NCBI RefSeq assembly: GCF_037042905.1
Contig: NC_087251.1
Coordinates: forward strand, 40,984,001-41,048,000
From: Lytechinus pictus
Taxonomy: Eukaryota
DNA length: 64,000 nt
Direction of reading: 5' to 3'
The translations under genes and the position numbers were made by a program. Of the stretch, positions 41,401-63,829 are shown one piece after another. Position 1 is the first letter of the stretch, and each line of letters opens with the position of its first letter. The notes below the pieces were generated by a model. That model was given only the letters and a program-made list of their open reading frames with translations. It made no database searches and was not told the origin of the DNA.

Positions 41401-44400
41401 ATTAGGAGTTGAAGAATGCTGCTGCAGTTCTGGGCAGGAAGCAACCCTCCCAGAAGGCAGCAGTCCTAGCAACGGAACAGGAAGCAGAGAGGCAGTGGGA
41501 TGCCCTATGTGAACTTAGCCAGCAGCGGCAGGAGAAGCTAGCCAGCTCCCTCAATCTACAACAATTCTACAAGGACTATAGAGAAATGGTAAGCAAACGA
41601 CATTGTTTCCAAACAGAAATAATTTGTTGTAATGATTTTGACTTCAAGTGTCATTTATCAATGATATAAGCTCACTCCTTGAATGGTTTGAGCCCTTTAA
41701 AAAATAGTTCTGCAGTTCTAACCTCACTGTAATATATATTAAAATGTGCATACATAATTGATTTAGTAATGGGGAATGAATTTAGTGATCTGAAAAAAAT
41801 CTTGGATTTTATTCCTATTTACAAAGTGTAATAGGTTAATTAATCATCCGTGTTATTGTCTTCTGTGACAGATGAGTTGGACTGGTCAGGTGATCAATCA
41901 CATGACTTCTGGTGAGCTTGCCAAAGCATCAAGTGAAGTGGAGAATTTATGTGAGCTTCATAAGGAGAGAAAGGTAATTCAATTAATGTAGGATAAATCA
42001 GATACCTGTACTTATATCATTGTCCATCTATTCAATGCTATGTTTTGTCTTCAAATTCATTGGATCATTTTGTATTGGATCCTGATGGTTGAAAAAAAAT
42101 TCTAAAGACCCAGACCGGACCCAAAAGTGAAATTTACAAATTATTTACCAATCAAAAACTTACAAACTACTTAACACAGCAATGCAAGCTTTATGTGTTT
42201 AACTGCTTACCAGCTGAGTATTTGGTTTAAGAATTGCTCCAATTATTGGGCTTCAAAAATATTATTTCTTTTGCATTTCACCAGCCTCAAACCCATGACA
42301 TCATGTTGTGTTAGAAACGTTGTGATTCCATAGATTTGTACACAGACATACAGTAAGTTCGTATTCTTATTCATCCATGCTGAAATAGGTTTTGGCAATG
42401 TCAAGTTTCTGAGCAAAACCTGGTCTTCCTTGTAAGACCAGGGGCCCATAACACAAAGCTTAGCAATGATCGTAGAACATTTTTCTATGATTGATTGCAT
42501 TGACTATAATGTACAATCAATCGTAAAAATCAAGCGTACGATTAATCGCTAACCTTAGTGTTACGGGACCCAGGTAGGTGTTTTATAAAGCTGTTATAAG
42601 TTATGTAAGTTATGAGCGTCTTTACTTGTGACTGGTGATCATTTTTTAGGCACTGAATCAATATCAATGAAAATTTGGTGTGTATCATTTACCACAAAAA
42701 AGATCACCAGTCTTTCATAAAGTCGCTTGTAACTCAAAACAGCTTTATGAAATTCCTACCTGGTCATTAAGCCTTTCTACGCTTAATTCTTTTGTACTTT
42801 TATTCTCTCAGGCTGAAATAGATGGTCGCAATGCCAAGTTCGAGTCTCTGCATGAGACCGGGTCTTCCTTGGTAGATGAAGGTCACTACGCTGCTGCTGA
42901 TATCAAACAATGCTTGGAGGAGCTGACCGCAAGCAAGGCTCAGGTAGAGACAGGCTGGGAGCAACGCAAGACACTCCTGGCTCAGTGTTTGGATCTTCAA
43001 GTGTTCAAGGAGTACATGGAACAAGCAGATAGCTGGCTGGCAACCAAGGAAGCCTTTATTACACAGGAGGATGCAGGGGTGAGTGATTGTCAATAGGAGG
43101 AGGGCAAGTCAATCAACCTTTGTGCATCTTCCACCCACATTTTTCTCAAGTTAATTACACAGCAACAGAAAAGTCAAATATAACACTGGGAGCGACAATG
43201 TATGTCAGAATCAAGTAACGCTATCGTGAAAATTGAGGAATCTAAACATGCTGTTGCTAATATTAAAAGCATGAGATGTATCAATCAAACTTACGATAGA
43301 ATGAGAGTTTTTCTGGATGTATTTATTTATTTATTTAGTTATTTATTTATTTATCTATTTTTTTAAAATTTATTTATTTATATATTTATTCATTTATTTA
43401 TTTATTTATCTATTTTTTTTAATTTATTAATTTATATATTTATTCATTTATTTATTCATTCATTTATTTCTTTATTTATTTATTTATTTTTTCTGTATCA
43501 TGACTGTGTAATGGAATAAATCATGAAACATGATAGAAGAATTTTAAAATAAATTAAAAATAAAATAAAGTACATTGAGTAGAGTAAAGCTCAAATATAT
43601 CATCAGTGGCCTGGAAGGGGAGAGGAACAGAGTCATAGAACAGTCATATTCATGTTGACTTTATAATGCAGCCAAGATCGGTGTAATATGTGTTTTTATT
43701 GTGATAGTATGCAATGAATAACTTCTTATGTCATCAACATGTCTGATTTGATTCACAATGTATGGATGTGTTTTAGGATTCCCTCACCATGGTGGAATCT
43801 ATGGCCAGAAAACATGAAGGGTTTGAGAAGACGTTAGAGAGCCAGGTAGAGAAGATAGATGAGCTACAGGTCTTTGCGTCTCAGCTTGTATCAGGAGGAC
43901 ATTATGATTCTGGATGGGTACAGTCTAAATGTCAGGCCATTGCAGACAGGTTAGTGGAGGGAAAATAATCAAATAGTCTACAAACAATAAGATGATGGGG
44001 TGAACAGCATGTATGTGCAAAAAAAAAATATTCAAAAGCGCCGGCTCCCCAATATGTCACACGTTATTGTGGGGGCGACGTGGTCTAGTGGTTAAGACTC
44101 GTCTTTCAATCTGAAGGACGTGGGTACGATTCCAAGCCATGGCGTGTTTTCCTTCAGCAAGAAATTTACCCAAATTGTGCTGCACTCAACCCAGGTGAGG
44201 TAAATGGGTACCAGCAGGAAGTAATTTTTCAAAAACCTTAGCTTAGCCGGGGTAATATAAGAGCGCATTGAGCACCTGGCAAGATGGATACGTGTGCTAT
44301 AAAAATCCTAAATTATTATTTATATTATTTTATTAATGAAGTTGCTTAAATAGATGGGTCTTTTGTTCAGATTTGATGATCTTAATGTTAACAATTATAA

Positions 44401-53400: not shown

Positions 53401-56400
53401 TAAGATATCAAACCAGTGTGCTAGTAAGCTATTTCTCTGTATTACCCGGTCCTTTGGAGAAGATTCTAAGCTATCCATCTTCTGATTACTTACTTACATG
53501 CACCCATGTTTTCTGAGCAATTAACTTAAATCTCCACCACCAAAAGTTGTTTTTAGACCACCTTTTAGTCAAGTTAGAATATGTCACAACTTGCCATCAG
53601 TAAACCTGGAGGCAATAGCCCGTATTCTGAAGTCAGGTTTAACTTTGACCGCGGTCTAACTCAGTGCTAAAATTATGGGGAGCCAAAAATTCTGTTTATA
53701 TTGTATATTTCTTAGGTTTACTATTTTGTTTCCTTTTGCTTTGATACGGAAGAAAAATATGTCAGTTGTCATGCCCAGACAATTATGAACTATTTGGGTG
53801 TCATGTGAGTTAATAAATTGAATGTGTACTGTTAGGGATTTCCTGCCCCAATCGGCTCTCCATAGTTAAACCGCAACTTTAAACCAGGGTTTAATTTAAA
53901 CCCAAGTTCAGAATATGGGCCTATGATTCATTTGTATTTTGGGATCTTTATTTGCAGAATTTCATATCGTAAAATCAATTAATTCATTGCTTTTTGTAGC
54001 AAGTTCTGTGTAAGGTCATGTATGGCCACTTTGCAGTTGATAATTTATCTTATCGCAATACATTTACATAAATTGAATCAGATTAAAATTGAATTAAACC
54101 AAGGATGTTGAAAAAAGGTGAGTATACAGATGCAAAAAAGGTATGAATATCTAGAACAGAAACATATCAAGTTCTTCTAATACATCTTTCTTTTTTTTGT
54201 ATTTCCACTTAACATAATATCTGAAATCATTTTTCAATACCATCCAAATTGACAATTAAACAATTTATTACTAAAGTAATTTAACATACATGTATATACC
54301 TTGTAAACTGCATTTTGCGCATAAACTAATAATAGGTTAATCAAATTATATTTGGACTCACTGATGTTAACCAAGGAAGATAATGTTATGCTGATCATGA
54401 GATGGAAAATTGTGAATAGAAAAAAAAAATTTAACAGTGGAGGTGCTGGATATGGAATGATTAATAATTGATGTACACTGTGATAATTTGATGACAATGT
54501 TTTTTCTTATATTCTCCAGTTTTTCTCTGACCTGATGGAAGCTGAATCCTGGATGAATGACAGGCGCCCTCTCGTGACCAGCACAGATTATGGCAAGAAT
54601 GAAGACTCGGTAGTGTCTTTATTGAAGAAGCTAGATGGTTTGGAGCTTGATCTAGAGGGTTACTCAGGAACCCTACAAGCTTTAGCAACAACTGCCAGCA
54701 ATCTATCTGATCCATCTAACCCTGCTGTGAAGGATGTAAAGAAAAGACAGGTTTGGTTTGGAATTTTGATCTTTTTTCTGTGAGGTTCATGTAAATGGTA
54801 TATTCTGATGGTAATGAATATGTGGTTGATTTTTTTAAAAATTCATTTTAGATTAAAAAGGTGATGGGATTGTTTTCACTCTCACAATTCCATGTACCAT
54901 ATTCATTCAGGTGGTTGGTGATTCAATAAAAATTTGTTTTCTTTCTTTGAAATATACTGTTTGATTGTAACTGATATTCTAATGTTTTATTTCAGTAAAT
55001 GGAACTGTACAGTTCTTTTAGCAATAATGTATGCTCTTTGGGCTTGAATAACTGAACAGTCTGTAATATATGTCCATCACTGAACTGGGGATATGAGTAG
55101 CTTTATTTTCCCTAAATAAAGAAGAAAACAATGTGAGCCAATTGAAGGCATTCACCTTCGAAAGTTTCCTCTCTGTTTTAAATTGTTTTTTTTAATGATG
55201 ATATATTACAATGAGAAATATAAAATAGTAAGATTTGATTTTTTTTTATAGTAGTATAGTTTGTAGAGTGATTAGTATCACTAAAATGGTAGGGTGGTAT
55301 GTTTACCAAGTTAAGCATAATTCTGATGCTTTAAAGTTGTACTGTACTTTACTACTTGTAATTTTATTGAGATCATACACTCTCAAAACACTCATTGAAA
55401 TAATGTGCCAGTCGTTGGGAGGTTTTTTTTTCTGGTTATTGGCTCAGTGGGTTTTGCAATGTTAATGCTGGATGAAGTTTTAAATAAACTGGTATTTTTT
55501 CTGGGAGTGTATTCTTATTTTCACTTTGTCGGTGCTGTATTTATTGTTTTGCATATTTAGCTATATGTATTGTAAATTTGTTCTTGAGATTTTCAAATTC
55601 TGGATTGGGGGTCGATAAGAGTTTGATAAATGGGTAATTTCATTGGGTTGGATTCATTTTTGTGTCCCAATTAAATATCTTTCAATGATCACTTCCGTTA
55701 AAAAAAATTGATGTCCCACTCAGGTTTACTAATCAAACATATTGCAATTGCATATTGACGTATTGCAGTTCTAGACCTGACAGTCTATTGCCAAAGATAT
55801 ATGAATGTGATGTCCATGTAATGTTGTTTAAATAATTAATTTGAACTATAACGAATCAAGAAAGATTTTAAGATCAAACCTGAATTACTATGTCAGGATA
55901 CCATCCTCTTATTGACCTTTCAAAACTTAGCCACATCTGAATTGATCTTCATTCAGATAGCATTAGTGATAATACGTTACATGACCGGTTGTGTTGGCTC
56001 AGTTGATAGAGCGTCCGTCTCACAACGGGGAGGTTGGGGGTTCAAACCCCAGCCGCTTCAGACCAAAAGACGTTAAAAGTTTCTGCTACCCTGTTGGCGT
56101 TCAATGATTAAAGGGATAGAGCCTCGTCGATCTGGCGCTGCGCAGCGGCTGCCGGGCTCACGATCAATTGGGGCAAAGCAAATTTTCGGAGTATTTCATT
56201 TCATGTCTATTTCGAACAATAAATTATGGATTTTCATTTTTTTTTTCTGATTTTTTTTTAACCCAATCCGATGGAATTTACCCAAATCTTGTCTCCTCTT
56301 ATCTTAGACTGAGATAGAGAATGAGTATCAGGAGATTCTGGACCTACTTGAGTCGAGGAAACAAGTGTTGATGGGCCATCTTAAACAGTTTGAGTTTCTA

Positions 56401-59400
56401 AGAGAGATGGATGAGATGATGGATTGGATCCAGGAGAAAGAGGTCCTGGCCCTGTCTGAGGACTATGGAAAGGACCTGGAACATGTTGAGGTAAACAGTA
56501 TGAGTCAATCTAATTCCCTATTTTATTTGTTTGATGTTGGGCAAGGATGCAAGTCATGTGATAAAGCTCTGATGTGTCTGTAAAAAGAGGATCTTCTTGA
56601 TAAGGAATGCAACATACAATTAAGATGTTTTTCAATAACGTTTTTAAGACCATCTTTGTTTGATGATTTATGATAATTTACATCAATAACTGGGATATAC
56701 TCATTTGATTTGCTTGTTCATTACGATGAACCAGCACGCCGAATATACAGTACACAATTTTCCTGCGCGCGCGCTACATCTCCCTATGAACGCACTATCC
56801 CAAGATCATCGCGCAATTTGGCATCCATTTCCTCTTTTACTTTCGCCTGCCGCCGTGATCAGACGTTAGCTAAGTACACTCCCACTTTACTATAAAAGTG
56901 TCCGTTGTTTACATATTTATCTATGTATTTACAGCCTATTTCAATCCTTTGCCTTTCGGCTTTAGATTGATTTCATTTATATCATAGTGCATGGAGCATT
57001 CGTGTTATTATTCACGTTTTTCTTTAAATAAACTTGTGAGTTCCGTTTTTCTCACAGACGGGTTGCTTCCGCTTCCCTTACCCGTAGCTCCGCGCACTCT
57101 TCCTGCGTTGCCGCAGGCATTGATACGACGCCAAATCCTTTTTAATTCTTTATTATTCTTGACTTGCACCTTTGCCTCGTCTTGAATTGAATTGATTTTA
57201 TTTCCTCCCCACAGCTTAGGCTATGGGACAGATAGGAGCGTCGTCCTTGTTTGTTCTCAAACTTGTTTTCAACTTGTTCCTTTGTGAGTCGGTTGATTGT
57301 CTCAATCAATCTTTTGTTTGATTAATTGATTGATTGATAATTGTTAATTAACCAATTGGTTAATTGTTTAATTATTAATTAATTTCAATAATTATTTTTG
57401 TATTGAAATTTTTTTTTAGACTTATTGTCTTTAAAAAAAATTTCTCTTAAAATTTTTGGGAAGCCCCCCTGTTATCTATTAGCGTCCTTTAAAAAAATTT
57501 TCGCTAATGAGTTGTCGGCTTTCCAGTTTAAGGGAAGTAAGTTTTTACTTCTTCCTTTCAGATCAGCTCCTTTACTTATTCCTTTGACCCTTGTCAAAAA
57601 AAAAAAAAAAAAACCTTGTTTTTTTTTTTTTTTCTTAGCTGATCCTGGTCTTCGTCCTTGGACTTAGATGTTTCTGTTTTTAATTAATTAACGTCATGTA
57701 TACGTGTAATTGATTAAAAAAAAAAAAAAACTCAGTTTTTTTTTTCCTCACTTCAGCTTCTTAACTTTGTTTGATCTCATGTTTAAGAAGTCGGTCCTGT
57801 TCTTTCCGAAGTTAATTTAATTAATTTTATTATTAATATTTCTGATAAGGATCTTGCTTTGTCACCTTTCTTGTCCACCCACCCCTCCGCCCCCTCTCTG
57901 TTTTCGACCCTCCTTTTGTTCTTTCAGCTAAGAACTTACCAGGTAGATCAGCTCTTTTGACTCCAAACCTGCCGCTGGGAGAGAACCAGACATGGTATTA
58001 TTGTTCCCGTGATCAGCGGCGTTGAGTATGAGGGCAAGAGAGTGAGACCCTTTGCGATGGGCGCTATAAAGGGTGGAACCGTGGAGTTGCGTCCACGTGC
58101 CTTGGAAAAAGGAGGGTGGAACCGTGGAGTTGCGTCCACGTGCCCAAGAGGGTGGAACCGTGGAACCGCGCCCACGTGCCCGAGCGTTTTAGGGTGGAAC
58201 CGTGGCGCAGCGGCCACGTGCCTGAAAGGTGATAGCCAAGGCTCCCTCGACGGGACCTGAACCTATTTTGGGGAGTGTTGTACTAGTATAGAAAACTTCA
58301 CTCCTCCAGGGCTGCTTTACCCACCGGCTATCGGGTCCAACAAGTCCGGGTTAAGAGCATGGGACTCTTTTCCCGGCACAGACTAGGCTCGATGCTTTGT
58401 CAGTCTCCTTCAGGGAGCATTAGCAAAGGGCTACCAGCCCCTAGTCGCTAGAGACACGTGAGCTCGACTCCGTCAATCTCACGATTATCTGATCAGGGTG
58501 GAACCGTGGAATCGCGTCCACGTGCCCTTAAAGGTGGAACCGTGGAATTAGCGTTCATGTGCCTAAACGGCTTGATCAGATTTGGGTGATTTTTTCTCAT
58601 GCGAGATATCACGTCCCCCCTGTCTCTTGTGCCCTCTTCTGCCCCCCGGAAGGGGCCGCATAGAAGAGGAAGAAGAAGAAATTCTAGGTTGCTAACCCCG
58701 CTTGGCGGGCAGACCCTTTCTTTCTGATTCTTGTGCCGATGGTCAGGCGTCGTAACTTCATGTTACAACAGAACGCCCTCGAGCATCACAGATTTTTATC
58801 CTCATGCTCTCTGTCAGCTAAAACCGCCGTGTCTAACACCGGGCAGGTCAAGCAGACTTTCGCCATCTCACACCTCGGAGAGTCACCGGCAATTTCATGA
58901 TTCGCCGGCTCACGCACCTGCAAGGGAAATTCCCGCTAATACACAGGTGTTATCGACATACGGGCATCGTCCCCCATTATGTCACCAGACTCCCGCTTCA
59001 TGTCAGCTTCAGCCGCCGTGCTAAGCACCGTGCGGTTCAAGCAGTCACCTGCCCTCTCACGCCGGGCTTTTATTGAAACGCTGTTCACCTACACGGTGAC
59101 CCCGTTTCCATGCAGGTGCTTCCAACATACGGCTTTCAAGCCAACATGTCGGCAAGCTCTCGATGACCGACGGCTGGACGTTGCATCCTTACAGGTTGCA
59201 TCAACACGTCCCGAGCATTACGGGTTCTTACCCTCGTGTTCTCCATCATTACAGACCGCCGCTACGCGACGGCCGGGCTTATCAACAGCCTCGCACCAGC
59301 CACCGGCCCCTTTCTTTGAAATTGCCGGCCCTTTCACCCGCACGGGTGTTTTCATGATATGCACAGGTGCTGCTGACGTATGGGTCTCACCCAGCAAGTC

Positions 59401-62400
59401 GGCAAGCCCCCGTATGTCGCTGGTTGGACGCTGTAGCCGCTTGGCTGTTTTCTGTCGGTCTTATTGCCGGTGACGGGCATTGAGCGGATTGAGTTTCTCC
59501 CGCCAGCCCGCACTCCGGGGAGCCGTCGGCGAGTTCACCTGCATGGGTATCCCCCATTAATATGCAGGTACTCCCGAATTCGCCCTCTACAGTACGTCAA
59601 GCCTCACAGTTTGACCGGGCATCGCTTACTGCAACGGCTCTTTCAGCGGTAACTCTCTCCATTCTACCCCCTAGGCGGGCCTGTAGATTGGAGGTAAGAA
59701 TTTCTAACATACCGCATGCCTTCCTTCTCTCATGAGAATGTTTGGCTGTTTTTGAAAGGGCAACCTATCACGCCCGCGGACCGTCCGCCCAGGCGACGGG
59801 ACCGTCAGCTTTTGGCTTGAACCTCACTTTCTATACGAAAGTAAGGGTGCCCTGTCTTTACTTTTAACTCCTTCTCTTCCTTGTAAGGTTAGAGTCAGGG
59901 CTAGTACAGACACCCGTCCTCCAGCGATCGCCGCTGTAGTGAGGGCGACTCTGATATTAGCACCATCACCACTCAGCGGTATGTCTCACTATCTCATAGC
60001 TCTGCCGAGCTTATGAGCATAAATATCGGATCTGAATGTCACGGCGATTAATAGTTCTCCTATACTTAATAATCGCTATGCCTTCACCACCCGGTGCATT
60101 ATGGTTATTTTGTAACCTATTTGTCTCGTATTTGGGCGGCTCGTGCGAGCCCTGCCCGAGCTGCCATCATCGGTCGTCCCCCCGGACCCCGCCGGCAGCA
60201 CCCGCACCGAACGCCCGGAGGGAATCGGCTATTTATATGCCAGATACCCCTCCTGTTGACATTCACAACTTGTTCCCCGAGTCTTTCCCGGTCGGGTAAG
60301 CATCATCTCGGTGGAAAGAAACAGCAATATATATCTCTTTAGATTGTCGGCTGTGTGCTTGCGTTCAGGCTTGTTTCAAGCCCCAGGTTTTTTCTGTCGG
60401 CATTTCTATGCCTACTTCCTGGGCGCACCCACCGTGCCGGGTCGGCGAGTTCACACCAAACTGTCCGCCACCAGGCCATCGGTCGAGCTCAAACAGTCTA
60501 TCCGATAGACTGCCCTCTATGTGGGTCAAGCTTGCGGGCGTCTCCGCCGCTTCCTCGTGTGGAGTGGGCTACGGTCGATGCATTTACCGTGCCCGTGTGT
60601 CGAGTTGTCTTCTTTTTAGAAGCTTTTTCACTCGGCACACTTGAGTCGCCTCGCAGGCTGCTTTCATCCTCCTTCCATGCTATGTATGTGACCATGGTCA
60701 CTGAGTGACCGAGGATGATGTAATCGTGGTGGATATACATTTATGTATAAAATGTATACGTGTGTGTATGCATACTTATGCCTGTCTAGCCATGATCACC
60801 ACGACCCGCTTTCTCTCGGGCCGACTGTGGATGAGTCCCTCCATGAAAGTGATTTACTTCACTGGAGTTCTTCTTTTTAGAAGCTTAGATTCTCATCCCC
60901 CGCTGCTTAGGGCGTCATTTTTGCCGCCCTCCGCAGCTTCTCGGAACTCCTTATCTTTCCGATATCGGACTGTTCCATGTTGTTGCAACCAGCGCCGGCG
61001 GTGCTTGCCCTTGCGATCACCAGAGAAACCAGGCCTTGTGGCTGTTTTCGTAAACAACTGGTTCTCATCGCAGACTGAGGGAAATATTGGTGATTATTTT
61101 CCTCAAGTCGCCTTTCTCCTCCGCTTGTTTCGTCAAGCGAGGACTTAGACACTCTTAGCCAGTTTCCGTCCCTAACCTTGATAGGACAGGGCCGTTGTTA
61201 CCTTACTCGATTCCGTTGGGAACGTAACTGTTGAGGTATCATGTCTGGCGTTGTCTGTTGGTTCAGAACATCTTGACCGACATCTCTTGATCATCGTTTA
61301 CACGTAAGATCATGACAGAGACATTGTTCGCCAGCTCATCTCTGGCGTACGCTTGCTGCGACTAGGGATTACTCCGCTCAGCGGACATCCATCGTAGCCT
61401 AGTCTTACGGGCCCTCTCGGCGATGGTGGCTTCAGCCAAACCACCGCCCACCTCTCCCGCCGCGGGCACTGCACCCTCGGGCGGGTGTTTTATTTAGTAC
61501 GGGAGAAAAGGGATCCGCTGTCTATCACACTTATTATGTCGTGATGCGTGCCGCGTTTTGCTCCGACACGCCCGTTTGAGCTGCTTTGACCAGACTGTTC
61601 TATCCTACATAGACAGCAGGTCCGTGGCAATTTCTTATTAACAGGATGGCACTCAGTCGCTTTTCTCGACACATTGACTGCCTTACGAGTGGTTTACTTC
61701 AACCTTACTCTCTGTCGTTCCATGTCCTTATCGGACCGCTGGAAACGTCCTGCCACAGCTCTCTATCAGAATTCTGCAGATGTTCTGCCCTCACGCATTT
61801 GAGACAGATATCGAATTCTGGGCACCTTCTCCCACGCGGGGGCTTCTGAGATATCTCGCATTCCTTACGTTTGCATGGTTGCGGCTTGGCTTAAATTATT
61901 AAGCCGGTGACTTGACCGTGGCTTTTATTAGCCCCGCTGTCGCCTTCTCAGATTGATTGATTGATCACTTACTGAACCGTACAAGTTTCAGTCTTCCGAT
62001 CACGATTCTTGTCGAAATTTTCAACAAAATCGGATCGTTTTTTGATCATCGGCAATTATCATCCCTCCGGTTACGGATGATTAATACCTTCAATCCGAAT
62101 CTTACAACCTCTTAAGTTCTTCTCAAACGTTGAGCTTGTATGGCCTAGTCCGTCATGGCACCTGTCGGTCGTTCTTGACGCTTGACTAACTCCCTCTGGG
62201 ATCGGTATTCAGGGTATCTTTTGTCTGTCTATCAGCCGAGATCCCTCCTGTATCTGTTTATATATAACCATTTACAGTACTAAGCTTTGCATACTTATGC
62301 ATCGCTCCCGGACCGTTGCCGGGATTGGCTTAGATTAGGTGTGACTTCTAACCCTCTTCTTTGTTTGCCATTCTTCAGACAATTCCCAACTCTGTGAAGT

Positions 62401-63829
62401 TGGTTGTTTTGTCGCGCAAGCCGTTTGCGGCAGCTTCTCGAGACATCTTTCACGCTGGATTGTTGAAACGATCAAGTCAGTTGGTGATGATGTTCTCCTT
62501 CAGACACTAGGCCGAGGGCCCATGATATTATAGTATCATTCTTCTTGGGCTCTTTCTATGGAATCGTCGTATACGACATCTTGAGGACCGCCTTTTTGGC
62601 GCTCTTCTAATTCCTTGTTCTTAAGGACCTTTCTTCACATGAGGCCTTATTTGCCTCCTCTGTCCTTAAGGCAGCGGCCTTTCGTGTCTTCATCTCCCTA
62701 TTTTTGTACGCACTTTCTTAGTCTAGACATGCCTCCCTTCACGTTGAATCCGTGTTGGTCTAGCAAATCAAATGAGTATATCCCAGTTATTGATGTAAAT
62801 TATGAAAATACTTACGTTTATTTTCTTATTTACAAGATAAATGGATATACTCATTTGAACCCTCCCACCTACCCCTCGCCTTGCGTGGCAACATGTCTTG
62901 CGTGCAGGCTCATGAGAGGAAATGGACGCCAAATTGCGCGATGATCTTGGGATAGTGCGTTCATAGGGAGATGTAGCGCGCGCGCAGGAAAATTGTGGAC
63001 TGTATATTCGGCGTGCTGGTTCATCGTAATGAACAAGCAAATCAAATGAGTATATCCAGTTATCTCGTAAATAAGAAAATAAACGTAAGTATTTTCATAT
63101 TTCTTGACAATGTTATCATTAAGTTCATTGTATCTTACAAAGTTAGAAATGGTAAATAAAATAACAAGGATTTCTGAGGCCCAGTTCTGATAAATTATCT
63201 CTTAGGGTTTAAGGCTGCTCTGAACTAGTCACTGTTGCATCTGCACCCGACCACGCCATGGAACTTTCGTTCTGTTGCTGTGTACCCGTGAGGATGATGA
63301 GGGTGCTACTGTACATTTAAAGAGATATTTTCCCTCCTGTTTTAAATAATTCTGAATAATTGATAGTGCTACTTGTGGATCTGAAATGTCTTGCATACTT
63401 TTTAATAACGTTTATTAGGCATTTAATCTTCATTTGCCACTCTCCACCCAGGTGTAGTAAATGGGTACCTGGCAGGAAGGAATTTCTTGAATGCTCGAGC
63501 GTCTGATCAGGGTAGCCGTGCTTAAGCCGGGGTAATAGTATGCAGCGCTTAGAAACATTTATATTAAGCGCTTTATACATGTTGCATATTATTAGCATTA
63601 TTATTAATAACATTTTTTCCTCTCTTGTATTAATCAGATATTGCAGACAAGGTTCAATAGTTTCACTAAAGACATCCTGACCAACGAAGGTCGTATCAGA
63701 GCTATAGGTAACAAGGCAAACACCCTTATCAAGAGCGGTATTGATGAGGATGATACCGTAGCAACGAGATGCCAAGAGCTTGAGATCAGATGGGATGAAC
63801 TCAAGGAGGCTACTAATGCCAGAACACAG
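2189..63829 (+). CDS. SPTBN5: Beta-heavy spectrin (SPTBN5/karst-like), partial spliced CDS: 44 exons, about 22 spectrin repeats; gene extends beyond both window ends
   Basis: Exons join in frame to 2305 codons with recurring spectrin motifs (W..EK, DYGKD..SV..LLKKH, KHQAFEAE). More than 17 uninterrupted repeats argues against conventional beta-spectrin; no SH3 in about 22 repeats argues against alpha-spectrin. Orthology is inferred, not searched. Confidence 0.85.
2463..2720. mobile_element. MITE family C (GGCCCCGTCTTACAAAGAG-type TIR)
   Basis: Imperfect TIRs; internal sequence similar to the copies at 21928-22170 and 32511-32777. Confidence 0.7.
2722..2820. mobile_element. short MITE
   Basis: GGGGCTCATTTCATAAAGACTT ... 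AAGTTCTTGATGAAACGGGCC imperfect TIR, directly adjacent to the preceding MITE. Confidence 0.55.
3230..3421 (+). CDS. SPTBN5: spectrin exon 2
   Basis: cag|IELYNHSWGETKEWIMDK...LGLLAI|gtaagt. Confidence 0.9.
3443..3587. mobile_element. MITE family F (GGGAGTGTTTCA TIR)
   Basis: TIR plus core GTTATAAGCTACTGAAAT..TGATTGGCTGAG shared with 14720-14859 and about 32825-32945. Confidence 0.7.
5439..5598 (+). CDS. SPTBN5: spectrin exon 3
   Basis: cag|VKTSYPDEG...FHNESKEL|gtgagt. Confidence 0.9.
5902..6193 (+). mobile_element. Helentron/HINE-like non-autonomous element
   Basis: AGTCTCACCT subterminal repeat mirrored by AGGCGAGACT, TCTG-type microsatellite, GGTCAAGGGTCA, 3' hairpin GGTTTGCGAACC. Confidence 0.5.
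6458..6585 (+). CDS. SPTBN5: spectrin exon 4
   Basis: tag|ITWCNEMNG...DIQAHED|gtgagt. Confidence 0.9.
7213..7372 (+). CDS. SPTBN5: spectrin exon 5
   Basis: tag|FTKLSKLGQQL...LQDALDLA|gtgagt. Confidence 0.9.
8222..8490 (-). mobile_element. tRNA-derived SINE (family S1)
   Basis: Reverse strand shows A/B-box head (GTTCGAATCC) and the shared core TGCACTCAACCCAGGTGAGGTAAATGGGTACC; copies at 20560, 30710, 44077, 63420. Confidence 0.8.
8763..8840 (+). CDS. SPTBN5: spectrin exon 6
   Basis: tag|ILNREADQIDVTTSGHEDFLDFNDLG|gtaagt. Confidence 0.9.
9847..9986 (+). CDS. SPTBN5: spectrin exon 7
   Basis: cag|STVESVISLLKRHEDF...KHYAKN|gtgagt. Confidence 0.9.
10261..10569. mobile_element. MITE family A (GGCCCGTATTCTGAAGTCAGGTTTAA TIR)
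   Basis: TIR of about 28 bp; six related copies in the window. Confidence 0.88.
10611..10734 (+). CDS. SPTBN5: spectrin exon 8
   Basis: cag|VVSRRDEV...FVRDADE|gtaatc. Confidence 0.9.
11302..11448 (+). CDS. SPTBN5: spectrin exon 9
   Basis: cag|ISSWLAEK...KHQAFQAE...LNE|gtaggt. Confidence 0.92.
11695..12352. mobile_element. piggyBac-like MITE
   Basis: TTAA|CCCTAATTTAACTGG ... CTAGTTAAGTAAGGG|TCAA. Confidence 0.65.
12590..12853 (+). CDS. SPTBN5: spectrin exon 10
   Basis: tag|TGTALVDS...DVGHDLRSVKSLLKRQQ|gtcaag. Confidence 0.9.
12881..12994. mobile_element. 114-bp hAT-like MITE
   Basis: TIR of about 30 bp CAGTGGCGGACCGTGACCCG(A/G)AGGAGACAAA; perfect 8-bp TSD ATGCAATT. Confidence 0.9.
13575..13705 (+). 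CDS. SPTBN5: spectrin exon 11
   Basis: tag|VLDAEMSLQ...GHFDKDKI...FTQ|gtgaat. Confidence 0.9.
13743..14370. mobile_element. TA-flanked (Tc1/mariner-like) MITE with a nested TIR element at 13855-14284
   Basis: TA|CAGGGAAACCCG ... CAGGTTTGCTG|TA; inner CCAGTTCGTAGTT / AACTACGAACTGG flanked by TATA. Confidence 0.6.
14720..14859. mobile_element. MITE family F abutting the exon 12 acceptor
   Basis: Same core as 3443-3587; right TIR GTGAAACACTCCCC directly precedes the acceptor CAG. Confidence 0.7.
14863..15049 (+). CDS. SPTBN5: spectrin exon 12
   Basis: cag|FNELEGPAEKRR...MLKKHQ|gtatac. Confidence 0.9.
16124..16324 (+). CDS. SPTBN5: spectrin exon 13
   Basis: cag|KLEAEITGHQPVI...AFEAQK|gtaagc. 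Confidence 0.92.
16819..16935 (+). CDS. SPTBN5: spectrin exon 14
   Basis: cag|YYSEAVEAESWMTEK...DYGKDEDAT...KNK|gtgaat. Confidence 0.92.
16958..17294 (+). mobile_element. Helentron/HINE (DINE-1-like) element
   Basis: TTTTATGCCCC subTIR, internal GGGGGCAT, GTCC microsatellite, 3' GCGGGGGCAT plus hairpin GTGTCC-TTT-GGACAC and CTAG end, in a T-rich site. Confidence 0.65.
17663..17776 (+). CDS. SPTBN5: spectrin exon 15
   Basis: cag|ALELNIEHYE...ITEKQ|gtacgt. Confidence 0.9.
17851..18344. mobile_element. TTAA-flanked (Kolobok-like) MITE
   Basis: TTAA|AGGAAAATGAAACCCTTGAAACAGGTT ... AACTTGTTCCAAAGGTTTCATTCCCCCT|TTAA. Confidence 0.8.
18434..19518. mobile_element. TIR DNA element with 4-bp TSD
   Basis: GCAT|CAGTCAGACGGCAGGTCCC ... 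GGGACCTGCTGTCTGACTG|GCAT; internal inverted repeat about 18830-18850 / 19097-19119. Confidence 0.8.
20349..20531 (+). CDS. SPTBN5: spectrin exon 16
   Basis: cag|EELVNQYK...SSEEYGQDYEHLE|gtaatg. Confidence 0.92.
20560..20855 (-). mobile_element. SINE family S1
   Basis: Same core and tRNA-like head as 8222-8490; (TAA)n tail. Confidence 0.8.
21286..21431 (+). CDS. SPTBN5: spectrin exon 17
   Basis: cag|ELSKKFDEF...EKQDSL|gtgagt. Confidence 0.9.
21569..21769. mobile_element. MITE family D
   Basis: GATGTTTCACAAAG ... CTTTGTGAAACATC TIR; inverted relative to 40260-40468. Confidence 0.75.
21928..22170. mobile_element. MITE family C
   Basis: CCCCGACTTACAAAGAGTTATGATTGAT / ATCAATCATAACTCTTTGTAAGATGGGG, CTG-flanked. 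Confidence 0.8.
22454..22762. mobile_element. MITE family A
   Basis: Same TIR as 10261; reverse orientation. Confidence 0.88.
22885..23297. mobile_element. TA-flanked MITE with internal GCCGATGCAGAATCGGC repeats
   Basis: TA|CCGTGTTTACAC ... GTGTAAACACGG|TA. Confidence 0.82.
23450..23763. mobile_element. MITE family A
   Basis: Close reverse complement of 10261-10569. Confidence 0.88.
24231..24345 (+). CDS. SPTBN5: spectrin exon 18
   Basis: cag|QALDMLM...IHQFNRDYEEAMSRIQ|gtaagc. Confidence 0.9.
24370..24875 (-). mobile_element. LINE (L2/CR1-group) 3' fragment
   Basis: ORF2 C-terminal motif HASPLLHQLHWLPV...YKCLH...PSYL...LRS...GDRTF on the minus strand. Confidence 0.8.
24878..25259. mobile_element. 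MITE family E
   Basis: CTCATCCACTTTCTTGAACTGG / CTAGTTTGAAGGAAGTAGATGAG; related partial copy at about 50090-50448. Confidence 0.6.
25901..26011 (+). CDS. SPTBN5: spectrin exon 19
   Basis: cag|EKYAIIPDELGKDVNSV...KHEAFENDLVALEQQ|gtgaga. Confidence 0.92.
26673..26852 (+). CDS. SPTBN5: spectrin exon 20
   Basis: cag|LQSLVNEAVRLQDEYPGEN...FHRLMAT|gtaagc. Confidence 0.92.
27120..27471 (+). repeat. Degenerate 130-bp tandem triplication across the exon 21 acceptor
   Basis: Acceptor-equivalent positions at 27165, 27295 and 27425, exactly 130 apart. Confidence 0.8.
27426..27629 (+). CDS. SPTBN5: spectrin exon 21
   Basis: cag|CKDLIKWS...LIQQGHFARQE|gtagat. Confidence 0.9.
27591..28124 (+). repeat. 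8-unit 63/77-bp minisatellite built from the exon 21 3' end and donor
   Basis: Units start at 27591, 27654, 27731, 27794, 27857, 27934, 27997, 28060. Confidence 0.95.
29177..29326 (+). CDS. SPTBN5: spectrin exon 22
   Basis: aag|IQERIEAVL...LSSQQE|gtaggt. Confidence 0.88.
29346..29955. mobile_element. TTAA-flanked (Kolobok-like) MITE
   Basis: TTAA|AGGGATGGTCCAGGCTG ... CAGCCCGGACCATCCCT|TTAA with long subterminal inverted repeats. Confidence 0.88.
30710..30996 (-). mobile_element. SINE family S1
   Basis: tRNA-like head, shared core and (TAA)n tail. Confidence 0.82.
31051..31155 (+). CDS. SPTBN5: spectrin exon 23
   Basis: cag|VYLQSSDMGATVEEVEAQIKKHEAFEKVLATQEEK|gtttgt. Confidence 0.92.
31357..31535 (+). 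mobile_element. tRNA-headed SINE (second family)
   Basis: GTGGCCGAGTGGTCTAAGGCG A box and GGTTCGATCC B box, followed by GTGAGCAAGGCATTTAA body. Confidence 0.7.
32283..32377 (+). CDS. SPTBN5: spectrin exon 24
   Basis: tag|TSTLQVFGSQLMEEGHFDS...EVTK|gtgaga. Confidence 0.9.
32511..32777. mobile_element. MITE family C
   Basis: GGCCCCGTCTTACGAAGAGTTACGATTGATCC TIR; CAG/CTG flanks. Confidence 0.8.
32977..33067 (+). CDS. SPTBN5: spectrin exon 25
   Basis: tag|RARLRDLSAERR...QFNRDIAE|gttagt. Confidence 0.9.
33657..33812 (+). CDS. SPTBN5: spectrin exon 26
   Basis: tag|AQAWIGEK...LQKHQAFEAEIKAN...VKQ|gtaatt. Confidence 0.92.
35391..35582 (+). CDS. SPTBN5: spectrin exon 27
   Basis: cag|EGESLLKQQH...EKWTREK|gtaaat. 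Confidence 0.9.
35660..35875. mobile_element. MITE
   Basis: GTTGCAAGAAA..TTGCAATCAATCGCAA / TTGCAATTGATCGCAAGTTTCTTGCAAC. Confidence 0.6.
36141..36224 (+). CDS. SPTBN5: spectrin exon 28
   Basis: cag|EVMVSAHDVGNDYEHCMELQKKLNDIGS|gtaagt. Confidence 0.9.
36255..36630 (+). mobile_element. LINE (L2-like) 3' fragment
   Basis: APEYL...YTPSRNLRS...RFAVAAAKTWNAIP...FKSSLKT followed by an (ATT)n tail. Confidence 0.8.
37053..37261. mobile_element. MITE with TTAGGG-like internal tract
   Basis: GACATTTTCTCCAGCGACAATCGCTCC / GGAGCAATTGTCGCTGGAGAAAATGTC; half copy at about 44553-44600. Confidence 0.75.
37887..38008 (+). CDS. SPTBN5: spectrin exon 29
   Basis: cag|DLSVDDVYVNQM...EDIKT|gtaaag. Confidence 0.9.
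38514..38628 (+). CDS. SPTBN5: spectrin exon 30
   Basis: tag|WQALQSGL...IHAFNRDIDDVMERISEK|gtatca. Confidence 0.92.
38658..39052. mobile_element. Harbinger-like MITE (AGGCCACCGCACAC TIR)
   Basis: TTA|AGGCCACCGCACAC ... GTGTGCGATGGCCT|TTA. Confidence 0.8.
40260..40468. mobile_element. MITE family D
   Basis: GGGGTGTTTCACAAAG / CTTTGTGAAACACCCC, CTG-flanked. Confidence 0.85.
40667..40780 (+). CDS. SPTBN5: spectrin exon 31
   Basis: cag|RNAMDIDEVGKDVSSVESLQRRH...TRLK|gtagga. Confidence 0.9.
41406..41588 (+). CDS. SPTBN5: spectrin exon 32
   Basis: tag|ELKNAAAVL...FYKDYREM|gtaagc. Confidence 0.87.
41872..41973 (+). CDS. SPTBN5: spectrin exon 33
   Basis: cag|MSWTGQVINHMTSGELAK...LHKERK|gtaatt. 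Confidence 0.9.
42442..42570. mobile_element. CAG-flanked short MITE
   Basis: CAG|GGGCCCATAACACAAAGCTTAGC ... GCTAACCTTAGTGTTACGGGACC|CAG. Confidence 0.8.
42812..43078 (+). CDS. SPTBN5: spectrin exon 34
   Basis: cag|AEIDGRNAKF...WLATKEAFITQEDAG|gtgagt. Confidence 0.92.
43320..43490. repeat. (TTTA)n microsatellite, degenerate
   Basis: Direct inspection. Confidence 0.9.
43777..43949 (+). CDS. SPTBN5: spectrin exon 35
   Basis: tag|DSLTMVESMARKHEGFEK...QAIAD|gttagt. Confidence 0.92.
44075..44333 (+). mobile_element. SINE family S1
   Basis: GTGGTCTAGTGGTTAAG head, core TGCACTCAACCCAGGTGAGGTAAATGGGTACC, ATT tail. Confidence 0.82.
44340..44500 (-). mobile_element. LINE (L2-like) 3' fragment
   Basis: YGDGAFSSVATRLWNSLP on the minus strand. 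Confidence 0.7.
45090..45327 (+). CDS. SPTBN5: spectrin exon 36
   Basis: tag|RDKLYNETE...KLQKHQAFEAEL...SIQQ|gtttgt. Confidence 0.92.
45338..45781. mobile_element. Harbinger-like MITE (same TIR as 38658)
   Basis: TAA|AGGCCACCGCACACCT ... AGGTGTGCAGTGGCCT|TTA; starts 10 nt after the end of exon 36. Confidence 0.8.
46176..46476. mobile_element. MITE family A
   Basis: Same TIR; closely matches 22454-22762. Confidence 0.88.
47110..47247 (+). CDS. SPTBN5: spectrin exon 37
   Basis: cag|RGEAMIEKEHHAA...LQQAYK|gtagga. Confidence 0.92.
47851..49073 (+). mobile_element. hAT-like deletion derivative with 6-bp TSD
   Basis: CATAAG|CAGAGCTTCCAAG ... GTTGGCAGCTCTG|CATAAG; subterminal CTCCCG repeats; GC-rich interior followed by a possible transposase N-terminal stub at 48601-48690. 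Confidence 0.75.
49687..49812 (+). CDS. SPTBN5: spectrin exon 38
   Basis: aag|AHVLQRTIDEMSDWL...DVGKDMASVKHLIKKHQ|gtaggt. Confidence 0.88.
50590..50720 (+). CDS. SPTBN5: spectrin exon 39
   Basis: tag|AVNLDVESYEEK...TVYQ|gtaagg. Confidence 0.9.
51248..51434 (+). CDS. SPTBN5: spectrin exon 40
   Basis: aag|YDAVNELAAKR...DYGSSLTAVQNLFKRHQ|gttagg. Confidence 0.9.
52027..52227 (+). CDS. SPTBN5: spectrin exon 41
   Basis: tag|ILESEITAHEQLI...ALDIQK|gtaaga. Confidence 0.92.
52287..52699. mobile_element. MITE with long, near-perfect TIRs
   Basis: About 70-bp TIR GGCCCGAATTCACAAAGGTGGTTTTGAAAACCCACGG...TTTCCTGTA, matching at both ends. Confidence 0.92.
53617..53921. mobile_element. MITE family A
   Basis: Same TIR; forward orientation. 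Confidence 0.88.
54520..54750 (+). CDS. SPTBN5: spectrin exon 42
   Basis: cag|FFSDLMEAESWM...DYGKNEDSV...VKKRQ|gtttgg. Confidence 0.92.
55984..56240 (+). mobile_element. tRNA-headed SINE (third family)
   Basis: TGGCTCAGTTGATAGAGCG A box and GGTTCAAACCC B box, followed by non-tRNA body CAGACCAAAAGACGTTAAAA. Confidence 0.7.
56308..56490 (+). CDS. SPTBN5: spectrin exon 43
   Basis: tag|TEIENEYQE...SEDYGKDLEHVE|gtaaac. Confidence 0.92.
56677..56835 (+). repeat. DIRS left inverted terminal repeat
   Basis: Reverse complement of 62915-63063 with two substitutions and one 1-nt indel, read by eye. Confidence 0.92.
62415..62632 (+). pseudogene. Frameshifted C-terminal remnant of the DIRS tyrosine recombinase
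   Basis: KPFAAASRD / LSRWIVETIK ... RAHDI ... ILRTAF / WRSSNS in shifting frames; resembles the DIRS YR box II region, with the HxxR arginine lost. Confidence 0.7.
62762..62858 (+). other. DIRS internal complementary region (ICR)
   Basis: First half is the reverse complement of the left end (TTTACATCAATAACTGGGATATACTCATTTGATTTGCT); second half is the reverse complement of the right end (TCAAATGAG...CGTAAGTATTTTCATA). Confidence 0.92.
62915..63102 (+). repeat. DIRS right inverted terminal repeat plus right extension
   Basis: Inverted copy of the left ITR followed by a unique extension of about 40 nt that the ICR matches. Confidence 0.9.
63420..63610 (+). mobile_element. SINE S1-related 3' part
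   Basis: CTCTCCACCCAGGTGTAGTAAATGGGTACC core, GCCGGGGTAATA, ATT tail. Confidence 0.7.
63638..63829 (+). CDS. SPTBN5: spectrin exon 44
   Basis: cag|ILQTRFNSF...ATNARTQ|gtgaga. Confidence 0.9.

Follow-up and report, generated by a model that had tools for sequence, protein, structure and literature searches.

DIRS1-like elements carry inverted terminal repeats, a right extension and an internal complementary region (ICR) with a 3-base overlap (PMC3266345, PMC7192593), and sizes of 3,974–6,283 bp have been reported for them (PMC3266345). The reverse transcriptase (RT) of DIRS-1 works in trans and its primer is unknown, as are RNA selection and the priming of reverse transcription by DIRS-order retrotransposons in general (PMC7192593). 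In Dictyostelium, a DIRS-1 element from which ORF1 and half of ORF2/3 are missing still underwent reverse transcription; for this step, that element can therefore do without any signal in the deleted part (PMC7192593). For Ty1, structured cis signals for packaging are located near the 5′ end of the RNA (PMC5454406, PMC8396678), and the 5′ cis region of mini-Ty1 comprises roughly 380 nt (PMC7192593). No description of a hairpin or packaging signal in a DIRS element was found in our literature searches, and an internal hairpin array is not mentioned for DIRS1-like elements in the available part of PMC3266345.

The window (the whole stretch of 64,000 nucleotides of Lytechinus pictus analysed here) contains a gene-less element of the DIRS1 type. 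Its flanking exons match Pfam Spectrin, so that the element sits inside an intron of a spectrin-repeat gene. The following parts were distinguished:

56673..63099, + strand: gene-less DIRS1-type element, 6,427 bp; both termini match the ICR; starts and stops with ATA
56686..56835, + strand: conserved part of the left inverted terminal repeat, 98% alike to 62915–63063 over 150 nt
57290..57800, + strand: AT-rich leader of long predicted hairpins, several of them A-runs paired with T-runs
58735..59600, + strand: second repeat array, far older, with four copies of a ~150–280-nt unit, 50–65% alike
60250..62650, + strand: likely decayed RT/RNase H/recombinase region, seen by eye in the translation; tool searches negative
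62762..62858, − strand: ICR, in which inverted copies of the two termini meet over ATA
62915..63063, − strand: conserved part of the right inverted terminal repeat; the right extension follows up to 63099

Thus, the element at 56673–63099 shares with DIRS1-like elements the inverted terminal repeats, the right extension and an ICR complementary to both termini with a 3-base circle-junction overlap (ATA). The ICR matched the left end (56673–56714) in 42/42 nt and the right end at 95% over 61 nt. We place the element near the top of the reported size range. Dispersed copies were also found, namely left ends beside different flanks in the public runs X23 and X1, and 1,945 contigs of run X9 on 56250–59450, ranging from 99+% to under 90% alike. 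The repeat family is large and varied. In contrast to DIRS1-like elements, no intact or detectable ORF for gag, RT/RNase H, methyltransferase or tyrosine recombinase was found in 56673–63099. No Pfam family was detected in any of the six frames, a search of 16 pieces gave one weak unrelated match and none that was relevant, and protein searches revealed no RT or recombinase match. The longest ATG-initiated ORF (164 aa) had no family match, and one frame of 60200–62750 had a single match among 1.84 billion proteins, namely an unnamed 95-aa piece that is frame-switched relative to the window. The string RAHDII at 62515 is presumably an RT/RNase H/recombinase-like motif within the decayed region. 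Because it has no recognisable genes, the element was filed as a non-autonomous derivative and not as a coding member of the DIRS family. The element body shows no CpG depletion (o/e 0.8–1.1). The sequence suggests a recent insertion from a coding lineage that has been dead for long, and such an element would therefore have to move in trans. In a coding-dead, recently inserted family free of protein constraint, anything conserved is for that reason a candidate cis signal.

Other non-autonomous elements were compared with this one. TOC1 of Chlamydomonas contains an internal array of 76-bp tandem repeats and has split direct repeats rather than inverted terminal repeats and an ICR. Like the element described here, it is a non-autonomous DIRS-order element, and no hairpin function is described for it in the available part of PMC9940879. 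LARDs and TRIMs have a large non-coding internal domain and depend on trans-complementation, and well-conserved RNA secondary structure has been reported for them; they differ in having direct LTRs and integrase-type partners, whereas our element has DIRS ends and a short motif present six times (PMC7215508). The internal domain of our element is non-coding and predicted to be structured, but its terminal repeats are inverted, and direct LTRs with a primer-binding site and a polypurine tract are absent. The element would work like a LARD but is not one. VL30 elements of mouse and rat are, similarly, full-length with stops throughout all genes and are packaged and moved in trans; rat VL30 has a short purine-rich packaging signal, and repeated protein-binding motifs (PSF) occur in VL30 (PMC4859993). 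Unlike our element, they are retrovirus-derived, have direct LTRs, and their packaging signal is single and experimentally defined (PMC4859993).

The short motif consists of 32 bases with a predicted 11-pair helix and a 4-base GAAC bulge. All six unit starts given by the first-pass annotation (58071, 58114, 58150, 58192, 58496 and 58532) were borne out:

58071..58102, + strand: hairpin unit 1, loop GTTGCG, outer G-U pair
58114..58145, + strand: hairpin unit 2, loop GTTGCG
58150..58181, + strand: hairpin unit 3, loop ACCGCG; closing pair broken (A·C)
58192..58223, + strand: hairpin unit 4, loop GCAGCG; closing pair C-G
58496..58527, + strand: hairpin unit 5, loop ATCGCG
58532..58564, + strand: hairpin unit 6, loop ATTAGCG (7 nt), two G-U pairs, outer A-U pair; the weakest, −5.0 kcal/mol
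58487–58497 with 58571–58581, + strand: 11-bp stem around units 5 and 6; pair probability 0.96 (0.77 in local folding)

The 13-mer GGTGGAACCGTGG is exact in 6/6 units and is absent elsewhere in the 64 kb on both strands at up to two mismatches. A covariance model built from the six units revealed no seventh full copy in the window; with a threshold of E ≤ 5, nine matches were obtained, namely the six units and three fragments (E 2.9–4.9). The annotated consensus, with T or G before CCACG, fails in copy 3, where a C stands in this place and forms an A·C closing mismatch that the annotation had omitted. The C-G closing pair of copy 4 in place of A-T, the two G-U changes and outer A-U pair of copy 6, and the variability of loops and linkers were all confirmed. 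The GAAC bulge is indeed invariant within the window; related copies carry TAAC, GAGC and AAAC, each of these being a single loose-end or junction string. The linkers (4, 4, 10 and 11 nt) do not align. The arms of units 1–5 are identical at 23–24 of 24 positions, and the five variable loop and closing columns match at 0–5 of 5. In units 1–5, 7/8 minimum changes fall in 8/32 columns (binomial p 4e-4); with unit 6 added, 7/11 minimum changes fall in those eight columns (p 0.008). The steadiness of the arms, the GAAC bulge and the loop GCG, as against the divergent rest of the loops and the linkers, points to constraint at the nucleotide level. The decay of the neighbouring repeat array to 50–65%, while the units were kept, would also count for constraint on the units.

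Folding of each unit alone gave the annotated bulged stem-loop as the minimum free energy (MFE) structure in all six cases (−5.0 to −13.4 kcal/mol). The consensus fold was better on the plus strand (−12.6, 11 pairs) than on the minus strand (−9.7, 8 pairs, with A·C breaks), where little of the lower stem remains and the fold of unit 6 is broken. Single units were not more stable than their own dinucleotide shuffles (z −1.3 to +0.4 on the plus strand), and few parts of the element are as unexceptional in their folding as the cluster (z −0.7 to −2.6). At equilibrium, ViennaRNA predicted that the arms pair across units and not as six local hairpins. In the predicted ensemble, the upper helix is formed in some register with a probability of 0.68–0.98, GAAC is unpaired with a probability of 0.67–0.93, and the lower stem is formed by 3/6 units. 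When co-transcriptional folding was approximated by prefix folding, units 1 and 2 were the only ones whose local upper stems gained support. In these models, the predicted bulged helix arises with the arms paired either inside one unit or between units.

All eight strings of the four annotated enclosing stems were found in place (CCCGT at 58006), but only ATCTGATCAG/TTGATCAGAT, the stem around units 5 and 6, was supported in the ensemble of 57990–58640 (0.96). The other three (ACGTGA/TCACGT, AGAGACA/TGTCTCT and CCCGT/ACGGG) had values of 0.0 there; AGAGACA/TGTCTCT is present in the MFE structure of the shorter piece 58440–58635. A long rod of units 1–4 with loop–loop pairing was weighed as the true fold but discarded as nothing out of the ordinary, since 8/12 loop orders gave equal energy, the native order folded no better than randomised loops, and 131/400 loop-randomised versions folded equally well. 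Counting G·T against A·C mismatches in perfect stems as a test of strand gave 2 vs 1, which are too few cases.

The annotated covariation is weak: two pairs show a double change, and 35/500 shuffles do equally well, which is not significant for a test that took in only the six paralogous units of one element. In the six-unit alignment, 65/66 cells pair on the plus strand, and 7/11 pairs never vary. The changes that keep a pair as G-U are C-to-T transitions, and this class is the most frequent one among the differences in X9 (41/234 places). Two loose ends read CATGG, which hints at a change from G-C to A-U at the CGTGG/CCACG position.

In run X9, the summed depth over the cluster was 5,000–17,000 vs ~50 in the host flank, which is not a copy number. 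The number and arrangement of the units differ among contigs (joints 58181–58496, 58179–58244 and 58163–58300), and one partial deletion of a unit was seen in related copies; copies with bulge variants or with this partial deletion may be dead. In the raw run X23, the summed depth over 57748–58603 was 29.7 in sense and 2.8 in antisense orientation, the read strand having been calibrated on a spectrin exon; this RNA evidence comprises 54 reads of mixed identity from one run. The sense reads start upstream of the hairpin cluster. The proposal that plus-strand RNA structure is under selection is, thus, favoured by the confinement of variation to loops and linkers, by the better plus-strand fold and by the mostly sense reads, but not by covariation or by most of the enclosing stems. 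The best fit is some nucleotide-level constraint on plus-strand RNA structure.

Downstream of the cluster, the copies of the second array share predicted helices (e.g., CACCTG/CAGGTG); their offsets include multiples of three (189, 243, 420, 432 and 621) and others (251, 431, 640 and 641). This array separates the hairpins from the RT-like decay. The first-pass annotation had placed an RT remnant directly behind the hairpins; no tool detected an RT, and the decay seen by eye lies ~1.7 kb downstream (near 60300–61200). It was also found, unexpectedly, that structure is predicted for most of the element, with z ≤ −2 in 40/70 windows vs 5/70 in host DNA.

Searches beyond the window were also performed. 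An Rfam search of 56500–63200 (E ≤ 5) gave eight matches, all under the gathering score and none inside 58002–58627. Scans with the unit pattern gave 0 and 0 matches in viral contigs and 0 and 0 in prokaryote genomes. Three single matches were found in metagenomes; these were lone units in GC-rich DNA without likeness to the element and were taken as chance. A search across sequencing runs gave none recorded as RNA that contains the sequence, which counts neither way. Protein searches found no intact partner element or Gag, and an atlas search yielded no match of use.

These characteristics allow us to assume, with a rough probability of 0.45, that the units are a multivalent cis docking signal for trans-mobilisation by an intact DIRS relative. 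The six units would act together as a docking site, through which the plus-strand RNA would draw in proteins of that relative for particle formation and copying, probably Gag. We infer the role in Gag binding or packaging from context alone. The conservation of the units would then reflect selection, their reader would be a protein of an element and not of the host, extra copies may raise avidity and help the non-coding RNA to compete with the helper's own mRNA, and the number of units may grow and shrink via template switching in reverse transcription. Against the docking reading stand the non-significant covariation, the ordinary stability of the units, the broken pair of copy 3, the weakness of copy 6, the bulge variants and the partial deletion among related copies, the small number of RNA reads, the failure of the searches to find an intact partner or its Gag, and the Dictyostelium DIRS-1 element that was reverse transcribed despite its deletions. 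As in the Ty1 packaging/dimerisation domain and retroviral Psi/DIS, a structured cis region would lie in the 5′ part of the genomic RNA (PMC5454406, PMC8396678). The SL1 hairpin of HIV-1 has an internal loop, is bound by nucleocapsid and can be converted into an extended duplex, as the tandem units likewise could (PMC516450, PMC8396678). However, the units have no conserved palindromic loop, none of the six apical loops is self-complementary or contains GACG, and the 4-base CGCG occurs in 2/6 loops only. In addition, there are six copies of the predicted hairpin here, located 1.4–1.9 kb from the element end; the cluster begins 1.4 kb from the left end, which is deeper than the ~380-nt region of mini-Ty1 (PMC7192593).

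A reader supplied by the host is an unlikely alternative to such docking. The hairpins, selected on plus-strand RNA, would be bound by a host RNA-binding protein for nuclear export, stabilisation or transport into germ-line cytoplasm, and the structural and strand evidence fits this as well as it fits an element protein. The Drosophila I-factor provides a precedent, namely a bulged stem-loop on retrotransposon RNA that is read by Egl-BicD, two stem-loops per RNA being needed for efficient transport (PMC13186709); the units here form groups of four and two. However, that signal belongs to a coding LINE, and Egl-BicD signals share shape rather than sequence (PMC13186709), whereas the 24 arm and bulge positions here are nearly invariant.

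It is likewise improbable that the units are a neutral by-product, in which a hairpin-prone 32-mer was recently duplicated by template switching and its tips and junctions are mutation-prone. The absence of significant covariation, the ordinary unit stability, the unspecial rod, the variable number and arrangement of units among contigs and the existence of bulge variants agree with this explanation. It is opposed by units 2 and 5, which are 382 nt apart and keep 24/24 arm positions between unrelated linkers, by the loop GCG, invariant in 6/6 units next to three saturated loop positions, and by the contigs only 84–93% alike, which still span the units.

An internal enhancer, that is, a DNA-level cluster of transcription-factor sites, is very unlikely. 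Each 3′ arm contains an E-box CACGTG (CATGTG in copy 6), and six CACGTG are found in 58000–58640 (five in units and one outside) vs none in the remaining 5.8 kb of the element, while the 56.7 kb upstream of it contain four. Composite sites typically have two conserved blocks at a fixed distance from each other, and the undepleted CpG of the element body also fits. This reading leaves unexplained the complementarity of the 5′ and 3′ blocks, the A-T to C-G double change and the better plus-strand fold; moreover, the sense reads start upstream of the cluster, and the DIRS-1 promoter was placed in the left terminal repeat (PMC7192593).

We give just as little credence to the idea that the units are left over from a tandem repeat that coded for GGTVExRPRA at the beginning of gag. 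G+C rises from ~0.35 to 0.55 directly before the cluster, as where coding begins, three of the five spacings (36, 42 and 36) are multiples of three with the others (43 and 304) one base off, and the most variable closing-pair base would be a synonymous third position of Arg. On the other hand, 7/8 four-fold sites are invariant in units 1–5, yet the loop codon changes (L/L/P/Q/S), and the two remaining frames show the same behaviour. Weak searches of 6,290 and of 122 candidates yielded no protein carrying such repeats. Even if the units were once coding, they could have taken on an RNA role later.

An IRES-like element, also put forward by the first-pass annotation, or a recombinase or primer site on single-stranded minus cDNA is highly improbable: although DIRS-1 passes through a linear single-stranded antisense cDNA whose primer is unknown (PMC7192593), and the upper stem of units 1–5 also forms as minus-strand DNA (−4.5 to −6.4 kcal/mol), neither the lower stem nor the geometry of the bulge survives there, the cluster matches no IRES or other Rfam family at E ≤ 5 and does not adjoin the RT-like decay, and an IRES would not be maintained because nothing translatable lies downstream, with no frame worth translating.

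The docking reading can be extended, although we consider this extension somewhat unlikely. The GAAC-bulged helix would be the first sequence-defined protein-recruitment signal of the DIRS order, multiplied six-fold by a parasite of a retrotransposon, and the entire 6.4-kb RNA of this parasite, dead genes included, would have turned into a folded, satellite-like molecule. Recruitment here may mean packaging by Gag, or loading and priming of RT as in epsilon. In the epsilon-type hairpin of hepadnaviruses, protein-primed cDNA synthesis starts by copying its first bases from the bulge, and the units may resemble such a priming hairpin in their order of lower stem, bulge, upper stem and loop.

Should a larger alignment of copies reveal no constraint, the array would be a commonplace internal repeat in a decayed transposon. 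Should the excess of predicted structure across the element prove real and be missing from intact DIRS elements, this would be a clear case of a retrotransposon becoming a structured RNA parasite. The 32-base motif, kept six times, is a small and directly testable handle on the cis signals of DIRS elements.

Three of three exon pieces of a spectrin-repeat gene on the + strand of the window matched Pfam Spectrin. An insertion that is G+C-richer than its surroundings was found between two exons of this gene. It is a gene-less DIRS1-type retrotransposon (the element), in which self-comparison revealed the following features:

56686-56835 and 62915-63063: inverted terminal repeats, 98% identical over 150 nt
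62762-62858: internal complementary region (ICR), an inverted copy of both termini (left end 42/42 nt, right end 95%)

The two ICR halves overlap in ATA, which is also present at both element ends (56673 and 63097-63099), and the element length was therefore set at 6,427 bp. This arrangement of terminal repeats and ICR is DIRS1-like according to passages in PMC3266345 and PMC7192593. Since the terminal repeats are near-identical, the insertion appears to be young. At the left end (56655-56690), the window copy is 9 bases longer after ATAATTTAC than the loose ends of other copies, and its ICR also contains the longer form; the flanks of the other copies are similar to the right end of the element itself, which hints at a target preference. 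The CpG observed/expected ratio (58000-62800) was 0.8-1.1 in the element body versus 0.43-0.91 in four flank windows, so gene decay would not have proceeded mainly via CpG loss. To the right of the element, dispersed repeats (63417-63600) were noted, probably short interspersed repeats, with 72-87% matches elsewhere in the window by self-comparison:

5791-5825, 8155-8595, 11083-11202, 20640-20761, 26411-26490, 30785-30900 and 44185-44227: matches to the 63417-63600 repeats

Translation showed that every reading frame of the element is broken, the longest ATG-initiated ORF comprising 164 aa. No Pfam family was found in the element across six frames with stops read as X, and 16 shorter element pieces gave one weak, unrelated Pfam match. 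Word-based protein searches and atlas searches with the element yielded no match. When one frame of 60200-62750 was compared with 1.84 billion proteins, the single match was an unnamed 95-aa ORF without a Pfam family; it aligns to the window in three different frames (57-81% identity) and would most simply be another decayed copy. Motifs seen by eye near 60300-61200 and 62500, which we take to be RT-like and recombinase-like, were confirmed by no tool; the RT remnant, placed by the first-pass annotation just behind the hairpins, is plausible by eye only and lies ~1.7 kb away.

The six 32-base hairpin units were found at the annotated starts (58071, 58114, 58150, 58192, 58496 and 58532) in a part of the element referred to as the cluster (58002-58627). 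A 13-base core is identical in all six and occurs nowhere else in the window with up to two mismatches. A covariance model of the units detected no additional full copy in the window, and an Rfam search returned nothing at the cluster. Folded alone, each unit gave a lower stem GGGUG/UGCCC, in which two pairs are G-U, followed by the GAAC bulge and an upper stem CGUGG(A)/(U)CCACG closed by a loop of 6-7 bases ending in GCG. The C-G pair of copy 4 and the changes in copy 6 are as first described, while an A.C mismatch in copy 3 had been omitted. Across the units, 65 of 66 cells are paired and 7 of the 11 pairs are invariant. Two pairs are changed on both sides, but the proposed covariation is weak and not significant, with the same values in 35 of 500 shuffles. 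Unit folding energy is ordinary for the composition (z -1.3 to +0.4). One metagenome contig (L003, 6995-7035), otherwise unlike the element, contains a single perfect instance of the unit pattern bordered by extra complementary bases, which was attributed to chance.

The position of the changes is a stronger signal than formal covariation or unit energy. Pairwise difference rates among the units were 0.07-0.09 in the stems, 0.47 at the closing pair, 0.64 at the three free loop bases and 0 in the loop GCG and the bulge, in agreement with the description of variable loops beside an invariant GAAC. Seven of the eight minimum changes in units 1-5 fall in 8 loop/closing columns of 32 (p about 4e-4), as do 7 of 11 when unit 6 is included (p 0.008); these p values are guides only, as the units are not independent. 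The linkers (11, 4, 10 and 4 bases) are unrelated, and copies within the adjoining repeat array (58735-59600) have drifted apart to 50-65% identity. Because the seven unpaired bases per unit are as invariant as the stems, sequence-specific recognition beyond pairing alone is suggested. The consensus fold comprised 11 pairs (-12.6 kcal/mol) for the + strand and 8 pairs (-9.7 kcal/mol) for the - strand; the + strand is favoured in this model.

In longer pieces, ViennaRNA preferred arms paired across units. The upper helix was predicted with P 0.68-0.98 (all registers summed), GAAC was predicted to be unpaired at 0.67-0.93, and the lower stem formed in three of six units. In modelling, such a cross-unit rod is the expected outcome of a repeated hairpin without special tuning, and 131 of 400 loop-randomised versions folded equally well. 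Four enclosing stems had been placed around units 1-4 and 5-6; in the 57990-58640 ensemble, 58487-58497/58571-58581 was supported (0.96) and the other three scored 0.0, AGAGACA/TGTCTCT being seen only when a shorter piece was folded.

Along nearly its whole length the element is predicted to be more structured than shuffled sequence. Folding z scores against shuffles (180-nt windows) were at or below -2 in 40/70 windows on the + strand and 43/70 on the - strand of the element (56700-63089), and in 5/70 and 9/70 in host DNA. For non-overlapping element windows the count was 20/35 (Mann-Whitney p<=1e-7), and for the body excluding leader, cluster and ICR it was 15/22. The signal names no strand, and the cluster is among the weaker-structured parts. 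The predicted structure may be a property of the DIRS group, because the comparison comprised host DNA only, which is more AT-rich. The AT-rich leader (57290-57800) is made up of long predicted hairpins, with z down to -7.7 and A-runs paired with T-runs (57596-57633, 57716-57745). The array at 58735-59600 has four copies, which retain 50-65% identity to one another. They have predicted helices such as CACCTG/CAGGTG in common, with side changes (3/23 pairs with double changes), and a QVL(S/P/L)TYG reading recurs in shifting frames. It could be either a coding relic or a structural repeat.

Four of 24 listed public sequencing runs were compared with 56250-59450. The contig run X9 gave 1,945 contigs:

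X9 contigs by identity
99+%: 394
95-99%: 610
90-95%: 724
under 90%: 217

Summed X9 depth, which is not copy number, was 5,000-17,000 over the cluster versus about 50 for the flanking host DNA, and the element family is shown to be large and varied. Left ends with unlike flanks were found in X23 and X1, and contigs of 84-93% identity span the units, some of which are lost or rearranged at contig joints. Single strings of related copies carry the bulge variants TAAC, GAGC and AAAC; CATGG, found twice in the 5' arm (only 5' arms being visible), would allow A-U pairing to CATG as present in window copy 6. Differences between copies were covered in 40 of 314 difference rows. Over 58711-59031 the summed X9 depth reaches about 120,000. 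In several contigs 58993-58995 is linked back to 58627-58632, and together these observations suggest tandem amplification of a roughly 365-bp piece (58627-58995) in that organism. In the raw RNA run X23, 54 reads aligned, with strand calibrated by a spliced spectrin exon; summed depth over 57748-58603 was 29.7 sense and 2.8 antisense, and sense reads are present upstream of the cluster too. Though thin, these data indicate that some members of the family have sense transcripts containing the units.

A coding-dead, high-copy, young DIRS derivative would have to be copied by another element's proteins, and the RT of DIRS-1 acts in trans, as stated in part of PMC7192593. Since only cis signals would be expected to persist in such a lineage, the cluster is tentatively read as a multivalent RNA docking site for a helper's Gag or RT (probability about 0.45), modelled on packaging regions of Ty1 and retroviruses (passages in PMC5454406, PMC8396678 and PMC516450) and on VL30 (PMC4859993, in part). 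Two main rivals are equally doubtful: reading of the units by a host RNA-binding protein, with a precedent in the I-factor (a passage in PMC13186709), and neutral duplication. An E-box array fits less well and is improbable, as is a relic of a gag peptide repeat, against which 7 of 8 four-fold sites are invariant; an IRES or cDNA-level role is the least credible.

Non-autonomous retroelements with conserved structure are already known, namely LARD and TRIM (passages in PMC7215508) and likewise TOC1 (PMC9940879, in part). In the literature covered, with few subscription journals and without Repbase or Dfam, no DIRS internal hairpin array or packaging signal was described. The repeat is real, and its units are probably a selected RNA motif with a putative function.
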